The notes beneath the pieces were generated by a model. That model had not been told where the DNA came from, did not search any database, and saw only the letters and a program-made list of their open reading frames with translations. From Isurus oxyrinchus (Eukaryota), in contig JANJGN010000121.1 of assembly GCA_026770705.1 (NCBI GenBank), positions 372,001 through 436,000 on the forward strand: 64,000 bases of DNA, given 5' to 3'. Numbering within the stretch: position 1 is the first letter of the stretch; each line of letters opens with the position of its first letter. The translations under genes and the position numbers were made by a program. Below are positions 1,961 through 63,210 of the stretch, in pieces.

Positions 1961-2257
1961 CTTGTACAGTTAGTACGAGGGTCCGCTCCGATGAAACAGA
2001 TGGATATCTCACTCTGCAGCTGAGATTGTGTCCATGGTGTTTGAGTGATGGGATCAGGGTCAGAACAGAAGTATAGGTCAGAGTGACACCATGCTGAGTT
2101 ACAGTGTTTGAGACTGATCCAGGTACGTCAGTGGGAGTGTCCCAGGTTAAGACAGGTGCTGCTGTTCCATTGCACGTTGTGTTGAAGGTGCAGCTTACAT
2201 CCACACACTTTCCTGCAATAATTTCAGCAGGGAATATCGTGGGTTTATCTGTGAAAT
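1961..2257 (-). CDS. Siglec-like gene A, C2-set Ig domain exon
   Basis: ttag|AT acceptor, CAAG|gtaagt donor, 297 nt phase 1-1, DFTDKPTIFP...SCTFNTTC...LTW...LSCRV...LTVQ. Confidence 0.9.
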
Positions 2258-3116: not shown

Positions 3117-3482
3117 CAGAAACGTGAAGCTGGGTTACAGGATAGTAGCTGTATTTATTTCTGCTGTCAAATTCTATTCTGAAAAAATAAGGTCCTTCAT
3201 CTTCCCGTCTGATGTTGTTTATAATCAGGGAACAGTCACCATCTTTCAGGTCTCCAGACAGCCGGGTCCGATGGTGGAACCGTGGTAACTCGTGACTGTG
3301 ATCCTTGGAGTGAAAGGCTATAGACGATGTTCTCCATTCCTCATTATTAAACCAGATTGCAACTCGTGGTTGCTTTTCCAAATGTGATGGATAACTGTAA
3401 TGACATGGAATCTGTACACAGGAACCTTCCTGCGCTGTCACCTCTCGTGGAGTGTCACCTTTCCACTCTTGTGACAGTCCAA
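3117..3482 (-). CDS. Siglec-like gene A, V-set sialic-acid-binding domain exon
   Basis: ccacag|TT acceptor, TCTG|gtaagt donor, 366 nt; QEW...GSCVQIPC...GDCSLIINN...GPYFFRIE...NKYSY, i.e. Siglec Cys pattern and F-strand Arg. Confidence 0.92.
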
Positions 3483-6893: not shown

Positions 6894-6933
6894 CTTGGAG
6901 AAGTGACAGGAGGAAGTAAGATTTCCCGATCAT
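6894..6933 (-). CDS. Siglec-like gene A, signal peptide exon (MIGKSYFLLSLLQ)
   Basis: ATG at 6933, 40 nt, CAAG|gtaata donor; phase 1 joins V exon as LLQ-V-GLSQEW. Confidence 0.88.
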
Positions 6934-7365: not shown

Positions 7366-7450
7366 CCAGGACCTGTCCGACTGCTCGCCTGGGGAGGAAC
7401 TGCCCACACGCTCTGCTTGGGCTGAATGACCTCTTCCTGTGCTGCTCCCT
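7366..7450 (-). other. 85-nt putative non-coding first/5'UTR exon of gene A
   Basis: Strong CTGG|gtaagt donor; homologous copy lies upstream of the leader exon in genes A, B, C and D. Confidence 0.6.
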
Positions 7451-7493
7451 CTGTGTATTTAATTAGAAAGGGCTGATGTGTCACTGTGAGATA

Positions 7494-26340: not shown

Positions 26341-26637
26341 ATAGCACAGTTAGTACGAGGGTCCGCTCCGATGAAACAGATGGATATCTCACTCTGCAGC
26401 TGAGAGTGTGTCCGTGGTGTTTGAGTGATGGGACCAGGGTCAGAACAGAAGTATAGGTCAGAGTGACACCATGCTGAGTTACAGTGTTTGAGACTGATCC
26501 AGGTACGTCAGTGGGAGTGTCCCAGGTTAAGACAGGTGCTGCTGTTCCATTGCACGTTGTGTTGAAGGTGCAGCTTACATCCACACGCTTTCCTGCAATA
26601 ATTTCAGCAGGGAATATCGTGGGTTTATCTGTGAAAT
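26341..26637 (-). CDS. Gene B C2-set Ig domain exon
   Basis: 297 nt, intact splice sites, near-identical to gene A C2. Confidence 0.9.
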
Positions 26638-27563: not shown

Positions 27564-27932
27564 CAGAAATGTGAAGCCGGGTTACAGGGTAATAGTTATG
27601 GCTCGGACCATTGTCAAATTCTATTCTGAAAAAATAAGGTCCTTCATCTTCCCGTCTGATGTTGTTTATAATCAGGGAACAGTCGCCATCTTTCAGGTCT
27701 CCAGACAGCTGGGTCCGATGGCGGAACCTTGGTAACTCGTGACTGTGATCCTTGGAGTGAAAGGCAAAGGGATTGTCGAATTTGTGTTTCTCGTTATTAA
27801 ACCAGATTCCGACTCGTGGTTGGCTTTCCAAATGTGCTGGATAACTGTAATGACACGGAATCTGTACACACGAACCTTCCTGCGCTGTCACCTCTTGTGG
27901 AGTGTCACCTTTCCACTCTTGTGACAGTCCAA
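27564..27932 (-). CDS. Gene B V-set Siglec domain exon
   Basis: 369 nt, intact; CVQIPC, GDCSL, GPYFFRIE. Confidence 0.92.
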
Positions 27933-28882: not shown

Positions 28883-28922
28883 CTTGGAGAAGAGACAGGA
28901 GGAAGTAAGATTTCCCGATCAT
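28883..28922 (-). CDS. Gene B signal peptide exon
   Basis: MIGKSYFLLSLLQ, CAAG|gtaata. Confidence 0.88.
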
Positions 28923-29348: not shown

Positions 29349-29433
29349 CCAGGACCTGTCCGACTGCTCGCCTGGGGAGGAACTGCCCACACGCTCTGCT
29401 TGGGCTGAATGACCTCTTCCTGTGCTGCTCCCT
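29349..29433 (-). other. 85-nt putative first/5'UTR exon of gene B
   Basis: Homologous to 7366-7450. Confidence 0.6.
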
Positions 29434-29719
29434 CTGTGTATTTAATTAGAAAGGGTTGATGTGTCTCTGTGAGACAAAATGAGGAAGTCAGATCAAAGTG
29501 ACAGAGCAGCTGATGTTTTGAGTTTTTTGAAGCTGTTAACCCTTTGCGTTCTGGACTTGTGATGATATTTCTGCTCAAAAGTGGAAAGTCATTGACCAGG
29601 AATTTCTCCTGTGGGTCACTGGGTTTCGAACCCTCTCTCACTCTCTGAGTGGATGGTCACCTGTTCGAGATTCATTTGGCAAAATTCAGGCTGGCAAACC
29701 AGATCAGCACTCAGTGTCA

Positions 29720-33120: not shown

Positions 33121-33871
33121 CAACCTCAGGCCTGGCTAAAAACAGAACTCTACCCATTACAGGGAAACCATCTTTTTTGTTCACAGTGTTAGTCACGTAC
33201 ACATTGGGTTATTTAAATTCAAATCTTGTCAGTACATAATCACATAATAAGCATATGTTCCCAGTCCCAGGTACATATCTGCTCCTTACCCAAGCAAGAG
33301 CTGTTTATCTCGTTCTAGCCTGGTGCTGTTTGCCTTTACCTTATCTGTTTACCCTCAGCATCTCTTTATGTCTCTTCTCGAGTTAATCCCTCGTGATCTT
33401 CAAGGCCTTTCTGGAGAGTTCTGCTGATGTCAGCCCCATGGTGCACAAGGTTCACCTGGAGAATTCTGCTGACCTTTGGTTTTCACTAATAGAAGTCCCT
33501 GTTTAACTCTTATATCCGTGTCCAACAGCCGAGTGGCGCAGGTACCTCAGTAGTCGGTCACCTTTAGTTAGAGCCTGTAATGCGGAGACAGGGCTTGAGT
33601 TGAAAGCACACAAGTGTAGCTGCTGAGTTCCTTTGTAAATAAGCGGAATGTGTTTCATCTAAGAACTGTCTGCTGATCTACTCTGTCTATTGTACCTACT
33701 CAGCCTCTCCAAAACAAGCCTGGATCCATAAGTCCCAACAAACTCGTGAGCAGCATCCAATAGTATCAATAATTAATGTATGTATTGTGGGTGGAATTTT
33801 TGATTTGGATCAATAATACTAAACACTGATCACTCTGATTGTCACTCTGATCATTTCTGTTTCTATTACAG

Positions 33872-33988
33872 AAGAAAGATGAGAAGGATCTGGAAATGAA
33901 ATCTAACCGCGGAGTCAGTCCTGATACAGATGATGATCTTTACGCAAACTGTGAATTTGCCGAGGATTCTGTTTATGGGAATTTATAA
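33872..33988 (+). pseudogene. Orphan copy of the gene C-type terminal exon (KKDEKDLEMKSNRGVSPDTDDDLYANCEFAEDSVYGNL*)
   Basis: ttacag|AAG acceptor, open to TAA; paralogue of 54600-54716; no upstream + strand receptor exons in the window. Confidence 0.75.
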
Positions 33989-35851: not shown

Positions 35852-35987
35852 ATGGGAAAAAGTTTAATCACATTCGGACACAGCCTTGGCACTCCAAGGG
35901 TTAACAGTTTGCTTTCATACTTTGACAGCAACCACCTCCCACTTTGTCTCACAGTGACACATCCACCCTTTCTCATTAAATACACAG

Positions 35988-36072
35988 AGGGAGCAGCACA
36001 GGAAGAGGTCATTCAGCCCAAGCAGAGCGTGTGGGCAGTTCCTCCCCAGGCGAGCAGTCGGACAGGTCCTGG
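35988..36072 (+). other. Extra copy of the 85-nt exon, not followed by a leader exon
   Basis: Homology to 40084-40168; following intron is cut by the 33-bp array at ~36165. Confidence 0.65.
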
Positions 36073-36164
36073 GTAAGTAACGGAACGATTGGAATTCACT
36101 TCCACCACCAACACCGTCCTTTGTTGATGTTGTGACTTTATAAAGAGAGATTCCAATGATTCAC

Positions 36165-38396
36165 AGTTCAGCACTCCCTCAGTACTGACCCTCTGACAGT
36201 GTAGCACTTCCTCAGTTCTCACCCTCTGACAGTGCAGCACTCCCTCAGTACTGAACTTCTGGCAGTGCAGCACTCCCTCAGTACTGACCCTCTGACAGTG
36301 CAGCACTCCCTCAGTACTGACCCTCTGACAGTGCAGCACTCCATCAATACTGACTCTCTGACAGTGCAGCACTCCCTCAGTACCGAACTTCTGGCAGTGC
36401 AGCACTCCCTCAGTACTGACCCTCTGACAGTGCAGCACTTCCTCAGTTCTCACCCTCTGACAGTGCAGCACTCCCTCAGTACTGAACTTCTGGCAGTGCA
36501 GCACTCCCTCAGTACTGACCCTCTGACAGTGCAGCACTTCCTCAGTTCTCACCCTCTGACAGTGCAGCACTCCCTCAGTACTGACCCTCTGACAGTGCAG
36601 CACTCCCTCAGTACTGACCCTCTGACAGTGCAGCACTCCCTCAGTACTGAACTTCTGGCAGTGCAGCACTCCCTCAGTACTGACCCTCTGACAGTGCAGC
36701 ACTCCCTCAATACTGACCCTCTGACAGTGCAGCACTCCCTCAATACTGACTCACTGACAGTGCAGCACTTCTTCAGTTCTGACCCACCGATAGTGAAGCA
36801 ATCCCTCAGTACTGACTCTCTGACAGTGCAGCACTCCCTCAGTACTGAACTTCTGGCAGTGCAGCACTCCCTCAATACTGACCCTCTGACAGTGCAGCAC
36901 TCCCTCAATACTAACTCACTGACAGTGCAGCACTCCCTCAGTACTGACCTTATGACAGTGCAGCACTCCCTCACTTCTGACCCTCTGACAGTGCAGCACT
37001 CCCTCAATTCTGACCCTCTTACTGTGCAGCACTCCCTCAGTACTGACCCTCTTACAGTGCAGCACTCCCTCAATACTGACCCTCTGACAGTGCAGCATTG
37101 CTTCAGTACTGACCCTCTTACTGTGCAGCACTCCCTCAGTACTGACCCTCTGACAGTGCAGCACTCCCTCAGTACTGACCCACCGATAGTGCAACACTCC
37201 CTCAGTACTGAACTTCTGGCAGTGCAGCACTCCCTCAGTACTGACCCTCTGACAGTGCAGCATTGCTTCAGTACTGACCCTCTGACAGTGCAGCACTCCC
37301 TCAGTAATGACCCTCTGACAGTGCAGCACTCCCTCAGTACTGACCCTCTGACAGTGCAGCACTCCCTCAGTACTGACCCTCTGACAGTGCAGCACTCCCT
37401 CAGTACTGACCCTCTGACAGTGCAGCACTCCCTCAGTAATGACCCTATGACAGTGCAGCACTCCCTCAGTACTGACCCTCTGACAGTGCAGCACTCCCTC
37501 AGTAATGACCCTATGACAGTGCAGCACTCCCTCAGTACTGACCCTCTGACAGTGCAGCACCCCCTCAGTACTGACCCTCTGACAGTGCAGCACTCCCTCA
37601 GTACTGACCCTCCGACAGTGCAGCACTCCCTCAGTACTGACCCTCTGACAGTGCAGCACCCCCTCAGTACTGACCCTCTGACAGTGCAGCACTCCCTCAG
37701 TACTGACCCTCTGACAGTGCAGCATTCCCTCAGTACTGACTCTCTGACAGTGCAGCACTCCCTCAGTACTGACCCTCTGACAGTGCAGCACTCCCTCAGT
37801 ACTGACCCTCTGACAGTGCAGCACCCCCTCAGTACTGACCCTCTGACAGTGCAGCACTCCCTCAGTACTGACCCTCTGACAGTGCAGCACTCCCTCAGTA
37901 CTGACCCTCTGACAGTGCAGCACTCCCTCAGTACTGATCCTCCGACAGTGCAGCACTCCCTCAGTACTGACCCTCTGACAGTGCAGCACTCCCTCAGTAC
38001 TGACCCTCTGACAGTGCAGCACTCCCTCAGTACTGACCCTCTGACAGTGCAGCACTCCCTCAGTACTGACCCTCTGACAGTGCAGCACTCCCTCAGTACT
38101 GACCCTCTGACAGTGCAGCACCTCTTCAGTACTGACCCTCTGACAGTGCAGCACTCCCTCAGTACTGACCCTCTGACAGTGCAGCACTCCCTCAGTACTG
38201 ACCCTCTGACAGTGCAGCACTCCCTCAGTACTGACCCTCTGACAGTGCAGCACTCCCTCAGTACTGACCCTCTGACAGTGCAGCACTCCCTCAGTACTGA
38301 CCCTCTGACAGTGCAGCACTCCCTCAGTACTGACCCTCTGACAGTGCAGCACTCCCTCAGTACTGACCCTCTGACAGTGCAGCACTCCCTCAGTAC
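36165..38396. repeat. Large 33-bp tandem repeat array (~2.2 kb)
   Basis: Unit CAGTGCAGCACTCCCTCAGTACTGACCCTCTGA; source of the 724-aa and 489-aa ORFs. Confidence 0.98.
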
Positions 38397-39406
38397 AGGG
38401 TCCTGAATCGTTGGAAGTCTCTCCTTAATCCTTGGGTGTGGAGGATCTCAGAGACTCTCATGTAATTGAGAAGTCACCATGAGCACAGCAGCAGTCAGAA
38501 TAGACAGATCTACAACCCAACACTCACACTTGCTGCACAGTTTCACCACCAAACCACAAGAATTAAGCAAACTGGCTGAAAATAAAGAGATGACAATTCA
38601 GCCTGTGTGGAAAGGTCAGAAGTTTATTGTTTCCTGTTTGTCTCTGATCTGCAGCGCAGATAAATATTAGAAAACCACAGAATCAAACAGCACAGAAAGA
38701 GGCCACTCAGCCCATTGTCCCTGTCCTGGTCTCCTGGGACAGATATCCAATTGGTCCCAATCTCCCATTCTCTCACACTCTGCAAGTATTTTGAAAGATC
38801 CTATTGAATCTGCTTCCACCGCGTTTTCAGGCAGCACCTTCCAGATCACAGCAACTCGCTGTGTACAATAAAACCTAACCTGCCTGCTCAGTGATGGTTA
38901 CTCCCATCTGAGGGGATTTATATTCATGAATTTGGATTCAATCTGGAACAGGAAGAATTTGAAGGACGATGGGGGAAGAGAGGTGGATTGAAACCAATTG
39001 TGTGCTTCTTTTAAAGAGCTAGCACAGCCAAGATGGCATGAATGGCCTCCTGCTATTCTGTGTGATTCTGTGATATGATGAAGAAAGTTCCTTTTCAGCA
39101 ACAGTTTACCTCTTCTGCTGAAACTCTTCATGTTGGAGAAGAGGAAGTGATGGTTTCCATCAGCGTTTAGTGTGTGTTCCAGTTCAGTTTTAACCGAAAC
39201 TCAGTGAAGCGGATGGTGAAGGTCATGAACCCACCACAGCGGCACCTCCAACACATGCAGAGTTCAGGCTAGAGGCGCTTTGTTAGTGTGTTTCACAGTG
39301 TCTGCTGGAGTAGGGTCAGTGCTGAGCTTGGGGACAAGTCAGTCTACAATGCTGCATCGGAATCAACAATACAACAATATGGGGTTTGGATCAGAAATAA
39401 TTTGAT

Positions 39407-39790: not shown

Positions 39791-40083
39791 CAGTCCTGAC
39801 ACCGAGTGCCGGTCTGGTTTGGCAGTCTGAATTTTGCCAAATGAATCTCGAACAGACGACCTTCTCACTCAGACAGCGAGAGAGGGTTTGAAACCCAATG
39901 ACCCACAGGAGAAATTCCTGGTCAATGACTTTCCACTTTTGAGCAGAAATATCATCACAAGTCCAGAACACAAAGGGTTAACAGCTTCAAAAAACTCTAA
40001 ACATGAGCTGCATCCTCACAAAGTGACCACTTCCACATTTTGACTCACAGTGACACATCAACCCTTTCTAATTAAACACACAG

Positions 40084-40168
40084 AGGGAGCAGCACAGGAA
40101 GAGGTCATTCAGCCCAAGCAGAGCGTGTGGGCAGTACCTCCCCAGGCGAGCAGTCGGACAGGTCCTGG
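40084..40168 (+). other. 85-nt putative first/5'UTR exon of gene C
   Basis: CTGG|gtaagt donor; ETS-like ACTTCC and AP-1 TGACTCA (40041-40047) just upstream. Confidence 0.6.
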
Positions 40169-40619: not shown

Positions 40620-40659
40620 ATGATCGGGAAATCTTACTTCCTCCTGTCACTTCTCCAAG
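40620..40659 (+). CDS. Gene C signal peptide exon
   Basis: ATGATCGGGAAATCTTACTTCCTCCTGTCACTTCTCCAAG|gtaata; upstream acceptor ctttcag at 40577. Confidence 0.88.
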
Positions 40660-42164: not shown

Positions 42165-42533
42165 TTGGACTGTCACAAGAGTGGAAAGGTGACACTCCCC
42201 GAGAGGTGACAGCGCAGGAAGGTTCGTGTGTACAGATTCCATGTCATTACAGTTATCCATCACATTTGGAAAGCCAACCGCGAGGTGGAGTCTGGTTTAA
42301 TAATGAGAAACAGATTCCCTGGGCTCCCATTGCCTTTCACTCCAAGGATCACAGTCACGAGTTACCACGGTTCCACCATCGGACCCGGCTGTCTGGAGAC
42401 CTGAAAGATGGCGACTGTTCCCTGATTATAAACAACATCAGACGGGAAGATGCAGGACCTTATTTTTTCAGGATAGAATTTGACAATGGTCCGAGCCATA
42501 ACTATTACCCTGTAACCCAGCTTCACGTTTCTG
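42165..42533 (+). CDS. Gene C V-set Siglec domain exon
   Basis: 369 nt, intact; GPYFFRIE. Confidence 0.92.
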
Positions 42534-43392: not shown

Positions 43393-43689
43393 ATTTCACA
43401 GATAAACCCACGATATTCCCTGCTGAAATTATTGCAGGAAAGCGTGTGGATGTAAGCTGCACCTTCAACACAAAGTGCAATGGAACAGCAGCACCTGTCT
43501 TAACCTGGGACACTCCCACTGACGTACCTGGATCCGTCTCAAACACTGTAACTCAGCATGGTGTCACTCTGACCTATACTTCTGTTCTGACCCTGACCCC
43601 ATCACTCAAACACCACGGACACACTCTCAGCTGCAGAGTGAGATATCCATCTGTTTCATCGGAGCGGACCCTCGTACTAACTGTGCAAT
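43393..43689 (+). CDS. Gene C C2-set Ig domain exon
   Basis: 297 nt, intact splice sites. Confidence 0.9.
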
Positions 43690-47100: not shown

Positions 47101-47222
47101 AGAGGCAGGAAAGTTGAGTTGAGGATTGTCAGATCAGCCATGGTGTCATTGAATGGCGGAGCAGAGTTGATTGGCCGAATGGCCTCCTTCTGCTCTGACG
47201 TCTTGTGGTCTTATGGTCTTAT
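44168..47222 (+). mobile_element. Near-complete CR1 ORF2 (endonuclease plus RT, disrupted) with 3' tail, inserted in a 33-bp array
   Basis: LNAHSIWNK...DLIAIMETW (APE); NYRPVSLTSV; YLDFQK; LYKALVRPHLEYC; TCTTATGG-type tail. Confidence 0.92.
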
Positions 47223-47223
47223 C

Positions 47224-48468
47224 ACCCTCCGACAGTGCAGATCTCCCTAATTACTGACCCTCCAACAGTGCAGCACTCCCTCAGTACTGACCCTCTGGCA
47301 GTGCAGCATTCCCTAAGTATTGACCCTCCAACAGTGCAGCACTCCCTCAGTACTGACCCTCCAACAGTGCAGAGCTCCCTAATTACTGACCCTCCGACAG
47401 TGCAGCACTCCCTCAGTACTGACCCTCCGACAGTGCAGCATTCCCTAAGTACTGACCCTCCGAGAGTGCAGCACTCTTCCAGTACTGGCCCTCCAACAGT
47501 GCAACACTCCCCTAGTACTGACCCTCCAACAGTGCAGCACTCCCTCAGTACTGACCCTCCAACAGTGCAGCACTCCCTCAGTACTGACCCTCTGACAGTG
47601 CACCACTCCATCAGTACTGACCCTCCGACAGTGCAGCACTCCCTCAGTACTGATCTTCCAACAGTGCAGCAGTCCATCAGTACTGACCCTCCGACAGTGC
47701 ACCACTCCCTCAGTCCTGATCCTCCAACAGTGCAGCACTCCCTCAGTACTGATCCTCCAACAGTTCAGCACTCCCTCAGTACTGATTCTCTGACAGTGAA
47801 GTACTTGCTCAGTACTGACTATGCGGCAGTGCAGCTTTCACAGTACCTGCCCTCCAACAGTGCAGCAGGTCATCAGTACTCACGCGCCAAGAGGGCAGCT
47901 CTCCCTCAGTACTGACCCTCCCACAGTGCAGCACTACCTCAGTACTGACCCTCCAACAGTGCAGCAATCCATCAGTACTGACCCTCCAACAATACAGCAC
48001 TCCCTCAGTACTGAACTGAAGTGTCTGCCTGAATTAAGTGCTTTGTGGTGAAGGAACCTACATTGATATCACACCTTTCACATTCTCAGGGTCCCTCTTC
48101 AGTACTGACCCTCTGACAGTGCAGCATTGCTTCAGTACTGACTCTCTTACAGTGCAGCACTCCCTCAGTACTGACCCTCTGACAGTGCAGCACTCCCTCA
48201 ATACTGACCCTCTGACAGTGCAGCATTGCTTCAGTACTGACCCTCTGACAGTGCAGCACTCCCTCAGTACTGACCCTCTGACAGTGCAGCACTCCCTCAG
48301 TACTGACTCTCTGACAGTGCAGCACTCCCTCAGTACTGACCCTCTGACAGTGCAGCACTCCCTCAGTACTGACCCTCTGACAGTGCAGCACTCCCTCAGT
48401 ACTGACCCTCTGACAGTGCAGCACTCCCTCAGTACTGACCCTCTGACAGTGCAGCACCTCTTCAGTAC
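47224..48468. repeat. 33-bp tandem repeat arrays (47224-48012 and 48095-48468)
   Basis: Same unit. Confidence 0.95.
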
Positions 48469-49477
48469 AGGGTCCTGAATCTTTGGAAGTCTCTCCTTAA
48501 TCCTTGGGTGTGGAGGATCTCAGAGACTCTCATGTAATTGAGAAGTCACCATGAGCACAGCAGCAGTCAGAATAGACAGATCTACAACCCAACACTCACA
48601 CTTGCTGCACAGTTTCACCACCAAACCACAAGAATTAAGCAAACTGGCTGAAAATAAAGATGACAATTCAGCCTGTGTGGAAAGGTCAGAAGTTTATTGT
48701 TTCCTGTTTGTCTCTGATCTGCAGTGCAGATAAATATTAGAAAACCACAGAATCAAACAGCACAGAAAGAGGCCACTCAGCCCATTGTCCCTGTCCTGGT
48801 CTCCTGGGACAGATATCCAATTGGTCCCAATCTCCCATTCTCTCACACTCCGCAAGTATTTTGAAAGATCCTATTGAATCTGCTTCCACCGCCCTTTCAG
48901 GCAGCACCTTCCAGATCACAGCAACTCGCTGTGCACAATAAAACCTAACCTGCCTGCTCAGTGATGGTTACTCCCATCTGAGGGGATTTATATTCATGAA
49001 TTTGGATTCAATCTGGAACAGGAAGAATTTGAAGGACGATGGGGGAAGAGAGGTGGATTGAAACCAATTGTGTGCTTCTTTTAAAGAGCTAGCACAGCCA
49101 AGATGGCATGAATGGCCTCCTGCTATTCTGTGTGATTCTGTGATATGATGAAGAAAGTTCCTTTTCAGCAACAGTTTACCTCTTCTGCTGAAACTCTTCA
49201 TGTTGGAGAAGAGGAAGTGATGGTTTCCATCAGCGTTTAGTTTGTGTTCCAGTTCAGTTTTAACCGAAACTCAGTGAAGCGGATGGTGAAGGTCATGAAC
49301 CCACCACAGCGGCACCTCCAACACATGCAGAGCTCAGGCTAGAGGCGCTTTGTTAGTGTGTTTCACAGGGTCTGCTGGAGTAGGGTCAGTGCTGAGCTTG
49401 GGGACAAGTCAGTCTACAATGCTGCATCGGAATCAACAATACAACAATATGGGGTTTGGATCAGAAATAATTTGATC

Positions 49478-51573: not shown

Positions 51574-51670
51574 GGCGAGATTCCAATGAATGGAAAGCAG
51601 GATTGCTTGGAGCTGGAATCTGTTTGAGTGTTGGACTGAGTGGATTCTTCATCTTCAAGTGTGTGAGAAA
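51574..51670 (+). CDS. Gene C transmembrane exon (RDSNEWKAGLLGAGICLSVGLSGFFIFKCVRK)
   Basis: ttttacag|GG ... GAGAAA|gtaagt, 97 nt, paralogous to the gene B TM exon. Confidence 0.88.
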
Positions 51671-51984
51671 GTAAGTGTGAAGGTTTAATTGGTTGTTTTT
51701 GAAAATGTTTTCTTCAAACTTCTCTCCTTATAGAAAGAACTTGCATTTCTATAGCACCTTTCACAACCCAAAACCCTTCACAGCCCCTGAAGAGCTTTGA
51801 TGTTCACCTACTGTTTAACATCTCATCCAACATTCACTGTTTCACAACTCAGTCCTGTAACAGGCAGTGTTGACCCGGACCATAAGATACCTTGTGACCT
51901 ACTGAGGATGTGAAAGGAGCTATATAAATGAAAACCTTTCTTTTGTTAGTGAATGCAATCTCTTTCCTCTTTCCATGTTTCATT

Positions 51985-52135
51985 CACTCTCTCTTATCTC
52001 CACTAATGCTCTCCTTCTCATTCTCTCTCTCATTCACTCTCTCTTATCTCCACTAATGCTCTCCTTCTCATTCTCTCTCTCATTCACTCTCTCTCCAATC
52101 TCCACTAATGCTCTCCTTCTCATTCTCTCTCTCAT
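51985..52135. repeat. ~50-bp pyrimidine-rich tandem repeat, 3 copies
   Basis: CTCTCTTATCTCCACTAATGCTCTCCTTCTCATTCTCTCTCTCATTCA. Confidence 0.85.
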
Positions 52136-52424
52136 CCTCCTACACGTTGTTCAGTCTCTCACATTTTTAAGGAGCGCTGAGCAACATCTGCTCCTTCAGA
52201 AGATCCACCTCAACAGCTGGATTGAGCAGTGAATTGAAACTCGCTCAACGACTGCTCAGCTTTACACAGGAATCACGTCACAGAGTCAGGACACAAAGGG
52301 TTAACAGTTTGTTTACAACACAACACTAAGGCCCTACGTTTCAGTGAAAGGGTTTTCACAATTGTTCCCCAATTCCTGATTTTACTCACAGAGACACATC
52401 AACCCTTTCTCATTAAACACACAG

Positions 52425-52509
52425 AGGGAGCAGCACAGGAAGAGGTCATTCAGCCCAAGCAGAGTGTGTGGGCAGTTCCTCCCCAGGCGAGCAGTTGGAC
52501 AGGTACTGG
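52425..52509 (+). CDS. Gene C putative first cytoplasmic exon (GSSTGRGHSAQAECVGSSSPGEQLDRYW), a copy of the 85-nt exon
   Basis: 85 nt gives phase 2->0, the bridge needed between the TM exon and 53024; open frame; acceptor is weak. Confidence 0.5.
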
Positions 52510-52679
52510 GTAAGTAACGGAACGATTGGAATTCACTTCCACCACCAACACCGTCCTTTGTTAATGTTGTGACTTTATATATAATCAGATTCCAATGATT
52601 GATGCCTTTGAAAGATTTCTACAGATTATTGAGATCTGGGTGTGAGGCTCAGGTCTGTTGTACAGAACATCTTTCTGGT

Positions 52680-52952
52680 TAAATTATGCAGACAGGTTAC
52701 ACACAGTCTACGATTATATTCCCTCAGGTCTAGAAGATTAAAGGAGTGATGTAACTGAGGGGTTCAAACTGATTAAACACTCGATAGGGTCGATAGAGAG
52801 AAGCTATTCCCTCGGGTGGGGGTGGGTGGTGGGGGTCGGGTGGAGTCTAGAACAAGGGGGCTGGAACTTCAGATTGGAGCCAGGCCGTTCAGGGGTGATG
52901 TCAGGAAGCACTTCTTCACACAAAGGGGAGTGGAAATCTGGAACTCTCTCCC
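52680..52952 (+). mobile_element. CR1 3' fragment
   Basis: RPFRGDVRKHFFTQRGVEIWNSLP. Confidence 0.75.
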
Positions 52953-53023
52953 CAATAATCAAACCCAACACCGAATACACATCATGTTGATAGTCACTCT
53001 GTCCATTTCCATCTCTATTACAG

Positions 53024-53128
53024 AAGAGAGGCGAGGTGAAAGCAGGAATTAAATCGAACCATCGTGTTGATGAATATCGAGGTCCTGTTTATGAAAACTG
53101 TGAGCGTGGTTGGGCTTTGAGGAATCAG
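53024..53128 (+). CDS. Gene C cytoplasmic exon (KRGEVKAGIKSNHRVDEYRGPVYENCERGWALRNQ)
   Basis: tctattacag|AAG ... CAG|gtgagt, 105 nt phase 0-0, Tyr motif VYENC. Confidence 0.7.
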
Positions 53129-53261
53129 GTGAGTCACACACCACAGGATCCCCAGCCTCTCAGCTGCTCCAGTAGCCTGGTTATTGATATGGCTGCTCCA
53201 GTCCTGTATCTGCAATGTTTTATACAGTCACTCCCAAACCCAACCAAACTCACACCCAACA

Positions 53262-54503
53262 CCGTTCAGAATCAATAATCAAACCCCGTTCAGTATCAAT
53301 AATCAAACCCCGTTCAGTATCAATAATCAAACCCCGTTCAGTATCAATAATCAAACCCCGTTCAGAATCAATAATCAAACCCCGTTCAGAATTAATAATC
53401 AAACACCGTTCAGAATCAATAATCAAACCCCGTTCAGTATCAATAATCAAACCCCTTTCAGAATCAATAATCAAACACTGTTCAGAATCAATAAACAAAC
53501 CCCGTTCAGTATCAATAATCAAACTCCGTTCAGGTTCAATAATCAAACACCGTTTAGAATCAATAATCAAACCCCGTTCAATGTCAATAATCAAACCCCA
53601 TTCAGTATCAATAATCAAACTCCTTTCAGAATCAATAATCAAACCCAGTTCAGTATCAATAATCAAACCCAGTTCAGTATCAATAATCAAACCCCTTTCA
53701 GGATCAATAATCAAACTCCGTTCAGGATCAATAATCAAACACCGTTCAGTATAAATAATCAAACCCTGTTCAGTGTCAATAATCAAAACCCGTTCATAAT
53801 CAATAATCAAACCCCGTTCAGTATCAATAATCAAAACCCGTTCATAATCAATAATCAAACCCCGTACAGTATCAATAATCAAACCCCGTTCAGAATCAAT
53901 AATCAAACCCCGTTCAGTGTCAATAATCAAACCCCGTTCAGTATCAATAATCAAAACTCGTTCATAATCAATAATCAAACCCCGTACAGTTTCAATAATC
54001 AAACCCCGTTCAGAATCAATAATCAAACCCCGTTCAGTGTCAATAATCAATCCCCGTTCAGTATCAATAATCAACCCCCGATCAGTATCAATAATCAACC
54101 CCCGTTCAGTATCAATAATCAAACCCCGTTCAGTATCAATAATCAACCCCCGTTCAGTGTCAATAATCAAACCCCATTCAGTAACAATAATCAAACCCCG
54201 TTCAGTATTAATAATCAAACCCCGTTCAGTATCAATAATCAAACCCCGTTCAGTATCAATAATCAAACCCCGTTCAGAATCAATAAACAAATCCCATTCA
54301 GTATCAATAATCAAACCCCGTTCAGTATCAATAATCAAACCCCGTTCAGTATCAATAATCAAACCCCGTTCAGTATCAATAATCGAACCCCGTTCAATAT
54401 TAATAATCAAACCCCGTTCAGTATCAATAATCAAACCCTGTTCAGTATCAATAATCAAACCCCATTCAGTGTCAATAATCAAACCCTGTTCAGTGTCAAT
54501 AAT
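53262..54503. repeat. 24-bp minisatellite (~50 copies)
   Basis: Unit ATCAATAATCAAACCCCGTTCAGT. Confidence 0.98.
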
Positions 54504-54599
54504 TAATGTATGTATTGTGGGTGGAATTTTCGATTTGGATCAATAATACTAAACACTGATCACTCTGATTGTCACTGATCATTTCTGTTTCTATTACAG

Positions 54600-54716
54600 A
54601 AGAAAGATGAGAAGGATCTGGAAATGAAATCTAACCGCGGAGTCAATCCTGATACAGATGATGATCTTTACGCAAACTGTGATTTTGCCAAGGATTCTGT
54701 GTATGGGAATTTATAA
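54600..54716 (+). CDS. Gene C terminal cytoplasmic exon (KKDEKDLEMKSNRGVNPDTDDDLYANCDFAKDSVYGNL*)
   Basis: ttacag|AAG acceptor, phase 0; SVYGNL fits the ITIM consensus S/I/V/LxYxxL. Confidence 0.8.
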   Translation, partial: KKDEKDLEMKSNRGVNPDTDDDLYANCDFAKDSVYGNL

Positions 54717-58200: not shown

Positions 58201-60628
58201 CTGGGGAGTTTCAGTCTACTCTGTGGGGCAGACGTCCCCTGAATGGGGTCTTGAATCCCACAATGTTCAGAGCCCCTGAATTTGGCTGTGAAACCCACTG
58301 ACCCACAGGAGAAACTCCTGGTCAATGACTGTCCACCTCTGAGCAGAAATATCACCACAGAGTCAGGACACAAACGGTTAACAGTTCACCAAGATCTCAA
58401 AACATGAGCGTCTTGAGGTGGTGAAAGGTGCTATAGAAATGCAAATCCTTCAATGTTCTTCTTTCTTAAAGCCTTGTAACTCTCTGCAGAGCACCTATCA
58501 TCCCACAGAGAATCAAATTAGTCTGTGAAGACATTGTCTAAAAGCAGTTCTGATCTCTCGAGAGCATTCGGACAAGAGGTGACGTCTCATTAACTCCTTT
58601 CTCTTTCACAGCTTGAGAGTGAGAAGTGGATGGAATATCTGGGAGTGGACGATGATCGGGAAATCTACTTCCTCTTGTCACTTTCCCAAGGTAATATCAT
58701 CATCAGCTCAGACAGAATTATGTTTAACAGTCTTTGTAAAAGATCATTCTTATCTCTTAATCTCTGAAACCTCCTGCAACTCAACCAAACAACTTCCCAG
58801 ATCTCTGTGTTACTGCAATTCCGGCCTCTTGACCATCCCCCGATTCCCATCAATCCAATACTGGCGGCCGTGCCTTCAGCTGCCTGGGGCCTGAGCTCTG
58901 GAATTCACTCCCTAAACCTCGGGGATGGAGGAGATCAGAGGGTTTCATTTTACTGACAATCACCACGGCCACATCACAGCTGCAGTGAGAATAGACAGAG
59001 AGTCCAGCCCTCACTCTTCCTGCACAGTTTCACCATAGCAACCACAATATGGAAATTTAAAAATACTGAAAGTTAAACCGAAACCAAGCCAGTCAGTTTA
59101 GAGAGATGAGATGTTTACACAGTTTCTCTGTGTATCTTGTAGACACTGTGTTGGGTGGAAGACTGGCTTCACTAAACAGGGTCCTGAGGACCATGAGCCA
59201 ATGTAGAATGAACTTGTCCACTCCTGTGTCCAGGATTCTCTTCCATCCATTGTGAAACCTTGGGGAGTTCCATGTGTGTCCTGTAGATGGTCCACACTGC
59301 AGCCACTGTGCCCCAGTGATGGAGGGGGTGGATATCGAGTCTAGTGGATCTACAAACCTTCCAGAGTTAAATATTGATATTTCTCTCCCCACTTGGACTG
59401 TCACAAGAGTGGAAAGGCGACACTCCACGAGAGGTGGCAGCGCAGGAAGGTTCCTGTGTACAGATTCCATGTCATGACAGTTAATCATCACATTTCGTAG
59501 GGAGATCACGTGTCGGAATCTGGTTGACAGGAATAGATGGGAACCCTACAGCCTAAATGGTCTATAGCCTTTCACTCCGAGGGTCACAGTCACAGGGATC
59601 AAAGATTCCGCCATCGTACCCGGCTGTCTGGAGACCTGAAAAATGGCGACTGTTCCCTGATTATAAACAACATCAGACGGAAAGATGCAGGACCTTATTT
59701 TTTTCAGAATAGAATTTGACAGCAGGAATAGTTAAAGCTACTATCCTGTAACCCAGCTTCACGTTTCTGGTAAGTGCTGTGTTATAATTACTCAACAATT
59801 CACATTCAACACTCAATGGGAAATAACACAAACTGTGACGTTTACATATTAACACAAAACACAGCTTATTATAACTTGCTATCTGATTCTCAATAACCTG
59901 GTGATAGCTTCCAGTTCAGCCCTAAAGCAACCTCTAATACTCACTTTAATATCAATGATGAAAAGCATTAACTGTATTATCAGGTTATCCATTCCCATCA
60001 ATCTCTCCTGTCCTGTTTAAAAGTCTGACGTATCGATAAAAGAAAGATGTGCATTTCTGCAGCGCAATTTACCACCTCAGGAGGATCCAAATCCCTTCAC
60101 AGCCAATGAAATTATTCCTGAATTGTAGTCACAGATGTAAAACACAGCAGTCAGTTTGTGCACAGCAAGATCCAACAAACCACAATGTAATAAATCACCC
60201 AGATCACTGAGGAAATGAGAAGCCAGTGAACTCAAACCTCTGGTCTGATGAAGAGTCATACAGACTTGAAACGTTAACCCTGTCTTCCTCTCCACTGATA
60301 CTGTCAGACCTGCTGAGTCTTTCCAGCAATTTTTGTTTTTGTTTCAGATTTCCAGCATCCGCAGTATTCTGCTTTTAACTCCAATCTCTGGACTGAGCCT
60401 CTTCTCTCATCCAGTATTCTCAATTCACATGTCTCGGAGTGAACGTGTATTAAGCTGAGAGACAGAAACACTACTGCCAAAGAGCAAGAAAATCTCTCCT
60501 GATCATTGTAACCTCTCAGTTCTGATATCATCCTTGTAAAAGTGCTTTCTCTTGTGGGACTGTGATTTCTATTTGAACTGATGCTTCACGTTATATTTGT
60601 CTAAAAGGATCCATTCTCTGTCTGTTAG

Positions 60629-60925: not shown

Positions 60926-63070
60926 GTAATTACATACACCTTTCATTCTACATCAGCACTCCCTCAGCGCAGACCCTCTGACAGTGCAGCCCGTTCTCAG
61001 TGTCCACATTCTAAGGCCTCTCTAAGTGCTTCAAAGTCGATAGAATTTAATTGATCTTTATTTGATTATTGCTGAATGAAGAGACAAGCTGTCTAAACTT
61101 TACATCTCGCACACACCATTCTCCATGGCAACACCTCCACCTATCAGAGTCCACTTGCCAACCAATCAGCACTCTCTTCCCATTAAGTATAAATTGTTGT
61201 TCACTTTCTGTTGATAATCCTGTGAACGGGCTTCTTGATTCCTGCCATGACATCTGAATGTCCAAATGAACAGAACAAGTTCCAACAATGAGCTGTGGTT
61301 GGTGATTCCTCATGTTACATCCAGGGACACTGGAGACTATCAGTGTGTGGCAGAGAATGAACATGGAGCAGTGGATGGGTTCATAACCATCAGTGTGGAA
61401 CGTGAGTTACACAGACTTCAACATCTCTCTCAGATTTGAACACTACACAAACACCATCGAACATACACACCTAAATAGACACGTGCAGACACACATATAT
61501 GACCACACACAAAGACACACTCACACACAAACACTAACACTCACTCCCTCATGGGTTACCTGACCTCCCTCAGTACTGCACTGGAGAGTTGGCCTGAATT
61601 CTGGGATTTGTGTTCCCATTCATATTTATGGAAGAATATGGAAATTACTATTACAGACACTCAGATGCATAGAGGCTCTCACAGATACTCTCTGCGTCTC
61701 CAACTCTCTCTCTCCTTTTAAGAAGCTTCCTGAAACCTAACCCTTTGACGAATCACCAACCTAATTCTTCCTTATCTGATTCTGTGTGATTTTCTTTGTG
61801 TATCTGAGAGTAAGAGAGAGTTGGAGAGGTTTAGGAAGAGAATTCCTGCTGGTGAAAAGCTTACATAATGTTCTCACTATTTCCGTGCACATAATTCCCA
61901 TTATGTGCAATGCCCCTGTTTATAATGATGACTGCCTATGTAAACGTCACGCTGTAGTTACAGCCTCCCACCAGTGGTGGCATTGTAGCCCTTCATCCTT
62001 GTGTTTCCCAGCTTTCCCAGCAACTCCACTTCCCAGTTTGCTATACAAGCTGTGAGTTCATCGGAATTCAATTATTTCTCAAACGGTAGATTTGATGTCA
62101 TTTTATTGAAAACTTCCTCAGCGCCTCCCTGAAGGGTTTACACTCTCTGGGAAGCAGGAATAGGCTGGATGTTGGGGAGTTCATCTTTTCCCAGAGAGCA
62201 GTGATCCTCGGGAATGTGCTGTCAGTGGGTGTGGTGGTTGCTGTTTCTCTGTCGCCTTCAAGAGGGATCTGGAGTGGTTACTGACTGGGGGAGAGATCAT
62301 GGAAGCGGAGAATGATACAGCACAGGAGGAGGCCATTCAGCCCATTGAGCCTGTGCCAGGTCTTTCAATGTTCTATCCCATCAGATCCACTAACCACCAC
62401 TCCACTTTGCCCCCATCTTCCTCCTTCAAGTGTTTATCCAATTTCCCTTTTGAAAGTTCCTATTGAATCTGCTTCCACTGCCCTTTCAGGCAGAACCTTC
62501 CAGATCACAACAACTCGCTCTGTCAAAACAAATTCTCCTCATCTCCCCCTCCGGTTCGTCAATCTGTGTCCCTCTGGTTACCGACCCTCCTGCCCCTTAA
62601 ATACATCGATACTGTTCACCTCGACCACTCCCTGTGGGAGCGAGTTCCACATTCTCCCCTCTCTCTGGGTAAAGATTGGAACTGTTTATTAAGCGGGGGG
62701 TGTAAGTCCATGGGGGAGTCCATCTCGATCTTGCCCGATTCGCACACGCGTCCGAGATGGATTTCTACCCTGCACTAAACGTTTCCAGAATTTTCTACAG
62801 CACAATCCTGTACACAGCGATGGAGAGAAACATTGGACAGGGAGTCCAACAGCACAATGATCCATTCTCACCAATGTTCCACGCTAAGGGGAAAGTTCCG
62901 ATTGTCCACTCTTAGAGTGTTTACAATGAAAACATTCATTCCACATTGAATCCCAGTGGATGGGTCAATATTACAGCAAATGTTGCAGTGATATGAAGCT
63001 TGATTGTTCAGCCAGAGTGAGAGATTGAAAGCGGAGAGTCAGTGATGATTTCTTTCTGTGTGTTCTCTAG

Positions 63071-63210
63071 ACAGTGGAGGAGAGATTCTGCACGTGATCC
63101 TGATCCTGGGAATACGAGCTGTGATATTCCTTGTGGCTGTGGTTATCACTATCGCTGGAGTCTGTGTCTGGGAGAGACAAACAGTGAAAGGAAGTCGACA
63201 GACTGTTTGA
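63071..63210 (+). CDS. Activating-type TM and short-tail exon (SGGEILHVILILGIRAVIFLVAVVITIAGVCVWERQTVKGSRQTV*)
   Basis: Long pyrimidine tract ...ttctctag|AC, phase 1, hydrophobic helix with Arg (CGA 63115-63117), stop after 12 residues; not in the ORF track. Confidence 0.82.

Follow-up and report, generated by a model that had tools for sequence, protein, structure and literature searches.

Siglec V-set domains (sialoadhesin, CD33, Siglec-5/7/8/10, MAG) are the closest described counterparts of the shark receptors analyzed here, with which they share the fold, the F-strand arginine, the B-E disulfide cysteines, the inter-domain cysteines and the A-strand tryptophan; the V-C2-C2-transmembrane layout and a TEYAQI-type tail are likewise common to both. 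The human genome carries about 15 Siglec genes, and a swap between Siglec-7 and Siglec-9 is said to have shown that the C-C′ loop sets linkage specificity. In Siglec-7 the ligand is surrounded by the BC, CC′ and GG′ loops (PMC12140324). The primate paired Siglecs 5/14 and 11/16 resemble the shark family in their concerted evolution by gene conversion and in combining inhibitory and activating ends, and conversion equalises the ligand-binding domain within each pair (PMC6288428). A divergence peak amid homogenised flanks has been described for red/green opsins, MHC, plant R genes and immunoglobulin V genes, systems in which conversion creates new combinations and pseudogenes reside in the cluster (PMC3924837).

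The shark family differs from the known Siglecs in its low identity to them (~30%), in comprising several hundred genes, many of them tandem-V genes, and in the G-strand position, where 86 of 137 distinct exons have histidine in place of the aromatic Tyr/Trp. Unlike in the primate pairs, the framework is uniform while the loops differ, and small blocks are exchanged among hundreds of genes. Unlike opsins, MHC, R and immunoglobulin genes, these are predicted germline lectin-type receptors with three CDR-like segments and motifs common to several shark orders. Proteins predicted by NCBI from sharks and rays as 'Siglec-12/13/10-like', 'CD33-like' and 'MAG-like' belong to the same family under automatic names. 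No account of the family size or of its loop evolution was found in a search of literature outside subscription journals and supplements, including a whale-shark paper (PMC8455134) and a review (PMC13358205), so the family appears to be undescribed in the literature searched, with its proteins already in databases.

Siglec-like genes of the window and their family

The window is a stretch of 64,000 nucleotides from the shortfin mako Isurus oxyrinchus (contig JANJGN010000121.1, positions 372,001 to 436,000) and contains four Siglec-like units, A, B, C and D (Table 1). The interval on which the analysis centred coincides exactly with the gene B V exon, whose ends are AG/GT. Gene B consists of a leader, a V exon, two C2 exons, a transmembrane exon and three tandem pairs of tail exons; gene A extends past the window edge, and the transmembrane segment of gene C differs from that of gene B. 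The glutamate in the transmembrane helix of gene B was found in 1 of 30 other copies, the remaining 29 having glycine, which rules it out as a family trait. In the tail of gene B a GT follows the motif in the first two copies and is absent from the last; since the last copy alone lacks an internal splice donor, the tail could include as many as three TEYAQI motifs or be made in shorter versions. In contigs from four presumed-RNA runs, matched at 85% likeness, the V-C2 joint was seen in 4/4 cases and the leader-V joint in 2/4, which confirms the exon ends at the level of the family and not the expression of gene B itself.

Table 1 Coordinates of Siglec-like features in the window
Feature	Position	Strand	Remarks
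Gene A C2-1 exon	1961..2257	-	
Gene A V exon	3117..3482	-	WRTSSI C-C′ type, SRNKYSY F-G type
Gene A leader exon	6894..6933	-	
Gene B tail (exon pair repeated three times in tandem)	12900..20543 (approximate span)	-	each with xLYANP and TEYAQI (ITSM/ITIM-like)
Gene B transmembrane exon	21263..21359	-	carries Glu
Gene B C2-2 exon	21834..22115	-	
Gene B C2-1 exon	26341..26637	-	
Gene B V-set exon, Siglec-type	27564..27932	-	369 bp, phase 1/1; splice joints to leader and C2
F-G turn and G-strand start of B	27589..27615	-	GPSHNYY type; His at 27598-27600
Minimal micro-conversion tract in B	27598..27614	-	17 bp; at most 27579-27624
F-strand Arg of B	27625..27627	-	sialic-acid carboxylate position by alignment
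C-C′ loop of B	27766..27801	-	HKFDNPF type; entropy, type comparison
B-C loop/C strand of gene B, residues 32-43	27802..27837	-	third variable segment; entropy, omega 1.33
Gene B leader exon	28883..28922	-	
Gene C leader exon	40620..40659	+	
Gene C V exon	42165..42533	+	QIPWAPI C-C′ type, GPSHNYY F-G type
Gene C C2-1 exon	43393..43689	+	
Gene C transmembrane and tail exons	51575..54716 (approximate span)	+	tyrosine motifs VYEN, LYAN, SVYGNL
Pseudogene D V exon	59393..59769	+	AC acceptor, stop, frameshifts
Transmembrane exon and short tail downstream of D	63070..63210 (approximate)	+	intramembrane Arg

Several further elements were noted in the window. An orphan C-type last tail exon is present at 33869-33985 (+), with no upstream gene seen within the window. 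An element of ~90 bp equivalent to the first tail exon of gene C recurs at 7367-7456, 29350-29439, 35982-36071, 40078-40167 and 52410-52508, and occurs also upstream of leader exons, inverted relative to the gene. Long minisatellite arrays of 33-bp and 24-bp units (36160-38400, 47220-48470 and 53258-54506) give rise to spurious open frames.

In the assembly, exact tight patterns detected 634 V exons, and allowing one mismatch in a second pattern raised the number to at least 801; leader exons number at least 473 by pattern count and membrane exons at least 566 (229 Arg-type, 225 B-type, i.e. TEYAQI-type, and 112 C-type), the Arg-type being as common as the TEYAQI-type. Reversed-pattern controls gave 0 matches. 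The ITIM/ITSM-type tails and the Arg-type membrane segments may signal differently, the latter through activating partners. The counts give the minimum number of places in the assembly, with pseudogenes included and possibly some haplotype duplicates, and correspond to a family of about 470-570 gene units. Its members lie on contigs C52, C71, C121, C150, C189, C323, C385, C546, C557, C646, C724, C838, C926, C1130, C1184 and C1343, with a few copies on C34 (15.13-15.27 Mb) and C25 (36.07 Mb); of these, the copies on C34 could be at the ancestral locus. All 108 homologous matches are from elasmobranchs, the closest being lamniform sharks at 82-85% identity, with proteins of Cetorhinus and Carcharodon reaching 85%.

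The sample of V exons comprised 198 sequences, 174 intact and 24 broken, with 137 distinct as DNA and 126 as protein; it was not random, 60 loci having been chosen by likeness to A or B and most of the rest by their place on C52. Where V exons are identical, the flanks of the copies differ by a median of 0.67% (63 same-contig pairs) or 0.54% (18 cross-contig pairs), and 7 of the 81 pairs agree to within 0.1%, most copies being 0.5-1% apart. This divergence gives no support to the idea that most copies stem from haplotig duplication, which is possible for cross-contig pairs.

Runs of V exons ~2.3 kb apart mark multi-V genes at three places on C52 (602-610 kb, L096; 1871-1887 kb, L123-L124; 3112-3122 kb, L145), and seven V domains are present in a protein model from the basking shark (P0001). 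The distal V domains (L056, L059, L106, L043 and others on C52) are restricted to lamniforms and carry basic/aromatic C-C′ loops that vary in 9-bp steps, with up to three WNT repeats; the essential arginine is absent from 8/20 of them.

Siglec fold and position of the variable loops

The V domain of gene B adopts a predicted Siglec fold (structure model, pLDDT 89.8) with a TM score of 0.87 to sialoadhesin 1QFO; fold matches to Siglec V-set domains range from 0.83 to 0.89, and the top sequence and fold matches are all Siglecs. By score the V domain alone is closest to Siglec-8/10/5, and the multi-domain profile to MAG. C2-set domains, a transmembrane segment and a tyrosine-motif tail or charged transmembrane segment are all present, with three transmembrane types. 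The essential F-strand arginine, which aligns with that of CD33, MAG and Siglec-8, is found in A, B, C and 126/137 distinct exons, and the A-strand tryptophan in 135/137. Cys21, Cys26, Cys84 and the second C2-1 cysteine align with those of MAG and CD33, and the bonds predicted from this alignment give a B-E intra-sheet pair and a V-to-C2 pair, with no cysteine in the F strand. The first-pass annotation had pointed out a histidine in B and C at the G-strand position at which A has tyrosine; we found it nine residues after the arginine, in the column of the tyrosine of 'KYSY' in CD33 and 'NQYTF' in MAG. Among the 137 distinct exons this position is His in 86, Tyr in 49 and Ser in 2, and histidine is present there in other shark orders too; being both the majority state and old, it does not represent a recent loss of the aromatic residue.

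The six peptides quoted in that annotation are all present in the window, and its claim that variation is concentrated in the C-C′ and F-G segments holds: A, B and C differ at 16/23 positions there vs 11/101 elsewhere, so that 16 of the 27 variable columns fall within these 23 (Fisher p=3e-8; segments chosen post hoc, in agreement with the loops of the structure model). The framework and C2 exons of the three genes are near-identical, as described, with base differences of 1.9-3.8% in V frameworks and 1.7-2.4% in C2-1 exons, as compared with 17-34% in the loops and 3.5-7% in the intron. Between A and C, 99% of framework residues are shared vs half of the C-C′ loop. C-C′ types vary in length, in the distal domains by steps of 9 bp, and the F-G block is without indel.

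Entropy over the 137 distinct intact V exons is highest at residues 32-42 (B-C loop/C strand), 44-55 (C-C′) and 106-112 (F-G/G), so the two-loop picture was right for C-C′ and F-G and missed a third variable segment; nor is F-G merely dimorphic, since at least four types of its block were found. The variable loops map to the predicted binding-site side of the domain, as had been expected, being those that surround the ligand in Siglec-7; this mapping is based on alignment, the fold match and PMC12140324. From their position, the loop blocks would alter the choice of ligand.

The peptide TLQPKWSIAF, previously read as the loop variant of D, crosses a frameshift and has its 'TL' out of frame. 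D-type V exons are broken in 12/12 examined, which rules out D as a functional loop variant and, together with the frameshift, leaves D without bearing on function. The D-type V exon of the window and its copies on C52 form a pseudogene lineage spread by segmental duplication. Such exons could act as conversion donors.

Substitution, exchange and age of the loop types

Diversifying selection in the sense of a raised dN/dS had been proposed for the loops and was not borne out. Among the 137 distinct intact V exons pN/pS was 0.56 in the loops (bootstrap 0.37-0.81) and 0.54 in the framework (0.37-0.87), an outcome named beforehand as speaking against the proposal. The underlying counts were pN 0.20 and pS 0.37 for the loops and pN 0.036 and pS 0.066 for the framework, and transition weighting gave ratios of 0.75 and 0.69. 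The ratios are equal because the silent sites of the loops are also ~4-fold more diverged: same-amino-acid codon pairs, scored alone to counter path-counting bias, differed in 16% of cases in the loops vs 4% in the framework (0 of 20000 permutations). Per-base divergence in the 72 genes that have a C2 exon next to the V exon was 0.195 in loops, 0.052 in the intron, 0.033 in framework and 0.020 in C2, the loops being ~4x as diverged as the intron and C2 less diverged than it.

Maximum likelihood estimates on segment-specific trees gave omega of 0.67 for F-G, 0.91 for C-C′, 1.33 for B-C/C, 0.84 for framework and 0.74 for C2, the codon alignment being uncertain in the loops because of indels. An excess of dN/dS in C-C′ and F-G was detected neither by counting nor by maximum likelihood, with power reduced by indels and by the small number of silent sites. 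The B-C/C segment provides the sole hint of raised omega: its value is ~5 lnL units better than 0.7 and not significantly above 1, and within 20 distal-type domains B-C pN/pS reached 1.7-2.2. The framework omega near 0.8 suggests that many copies are weakly constrained. Loop pN is ~3x framework pS, so a site model with a single dS would report omega>1.

The two main C-C′ types and two main F-G types occur in all four combinations (67, 7, 7 and 23 of 137), and of the six named C-C′ types, five are each found with two F-G types. Mixed combinations were seen also in proteins of other sharks. Gene B and its sister copy L002 differ at 13/369 bases, of which 12 fall in one 17-bp F-G tract where B and gene C show zero differences; sites to either side limit its length to a maximum of 46 bp, within flanks that differ by ~1.5-2%. 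This comparison gives the limits of the tract, not the direction of transfer. A further copy, L005, carries the C-C′ loop of B on a C-like framework. Four-gamete conflict rises with distance and r2 falls (from 0.27 to 0.04), the conflict between near sites being 0.30 vs 0.39 overall (0 of 5000 permutations). Together the rise of silent and replacement differences, the uniform flanks, the tree discordance and the tracts make up a divergence peak under gene conversion.

The foreign sequences used for dating comprised 131 V domains, 105 of them non-lamniform, all from predicted proteins, so that convergence is excluded by motif length alone. The PWAP C-C′ motif was found in lamniforms, carcharhiniforms, bamboo shark, sawshark, sevengill and sawfish, the C-C′ motif ending in SSI (TSSI) in five shark groups, and the GPSHNYY F-G type is identical in whale shark. 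In the 105 non-lamniform domains the best core matches were 6/7 for C-C′ of A, 7/8 for C-C′ of C, 9/9 for F-G of B and C, and 7/9 for F-G of A (shuffled-core test, P<=0.0008 for 4/5 cores); the C-C′ loop of A is 10/11 identical to a catshark loop. For the HKFDNPF core of B no older match was found among the 131 foreign domains (3/8, P=0.14), the type being confined to the Isurus oxyrinchus genome among the sequences examined, and the MRR C-C′ type is confined to lamniforms, both indicating that new loops do arise. The splits between these shark orders date back on the order of 150-250 million years.

The framework follows the species, and several loop types recur across orders. The framework distance between the PWAP and TSS classes of the mako is 0.052, vs 0.215 from its PWAP class to squalomorph PWAP and 0.241 to batoid PWAP; domains of the same class in other orders lie at 0.14-0.24, and both mako classes are equidistant from every foreign class. 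Catshark and houndshark frameworks are far less uniform (0.205 between classes), which indicates that the uniformity is partly due to recent duplication of a single framework.

Explanations for the loop differences and their meaning

Loop types shared with distant sharks, together with mixed combinations, make it likely that the loops are old modules traded by conversion and not fast-mutating spots. We consider it probable that old loop blocks have been kept by selection under gene conversion and reshuffled by short tracts on a uniform framework. Duplication and conversion would hold the framework and C2 uniform, selection would keep distinct loop blocks, which would confer different ligand preferences, and short tracts would recombine the blocks between genes; conversion as the mechanism and selection as the reason for persistence are the parts that we infer. 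A local divergence peak under conversion has been described as a signature of selection, and new combinations by conversion are known in MHC, Ig and R genes (PMC3924837). Selection is likely to be behind the loop differences, as retention of old types and not as rapid substitution. The earlier reading is thus retained for Siglec-type V domains with variation in ligand-side loops and abandoned for diversifying selection as raised dN/dS.

That reading had the loops driven apart by positive selection, ongoing or episodic, acting on point mutations, and the excess of loop pN over framework pS, the B-C/C values, including those of the distal-type domains, and the existence of lineage-restricted loop types would fit it; we regard it as unlikely, since loop silent sites are raised about equally, omega in C-C′ and F-G lies below 1 without exceeding the framework, and the main loop types are conserved across orders. 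In our judgement slightly less likely still is a neutral escape in which conversion tracts stop at diverged or indel-bearing loops, which then stay different without ligand selection. Accumulated differences and indels do disrupt conversion (PMC3924837), C-C′ types are of unequal length and many copies are broken (24/198) or identical, but whole loops do get transferred, the F-G block differs without any indel, the peaks occur on ligand-side loops only, and conservation of protein motifs across orders needs purifying selection within each type. Chimeric or duplicated contigs might also create false copies and mosaics, as the family lies mostly on many short contigs and cross-contig twins could be haplotypes; such an artefact is very improbable given the flank differences between copies with identical V exons and the mixed combinations in proteins of other sharks.

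Retention and reshuffling of old loop blocks recasts an apparently fast loop evolution as old loop types in new combinations, and it carries the warning that standard site models would report false positive selection in this family. It also supplies natural loop-swap pairs, namely B and L002, whose domain is the same apart from the F-G block, and A and C, whose loops differ on a framework that is 99% identical, which make the determinants of Siglec specificity directly testable. With ~500 gene units the family would far exceed mammalian Siglec clusters. More tentatively, and at slightly less than even chances, lamniform sharks may possess a germline combinatorial receptor repertoire whose Siglec-like genes number several hundred and would form the largest Siglec family to date. 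In it, three CDR-like loop cassettes, some predating the split of the shark orders, would have been placed by conversion on a single framework and on tails of either inhibitory or activating type; it would be an innate parallel to antibody loop diversification, and its Arg-less, basic-aromatic distal domains might extend recognition to ligands other than sialic acid.
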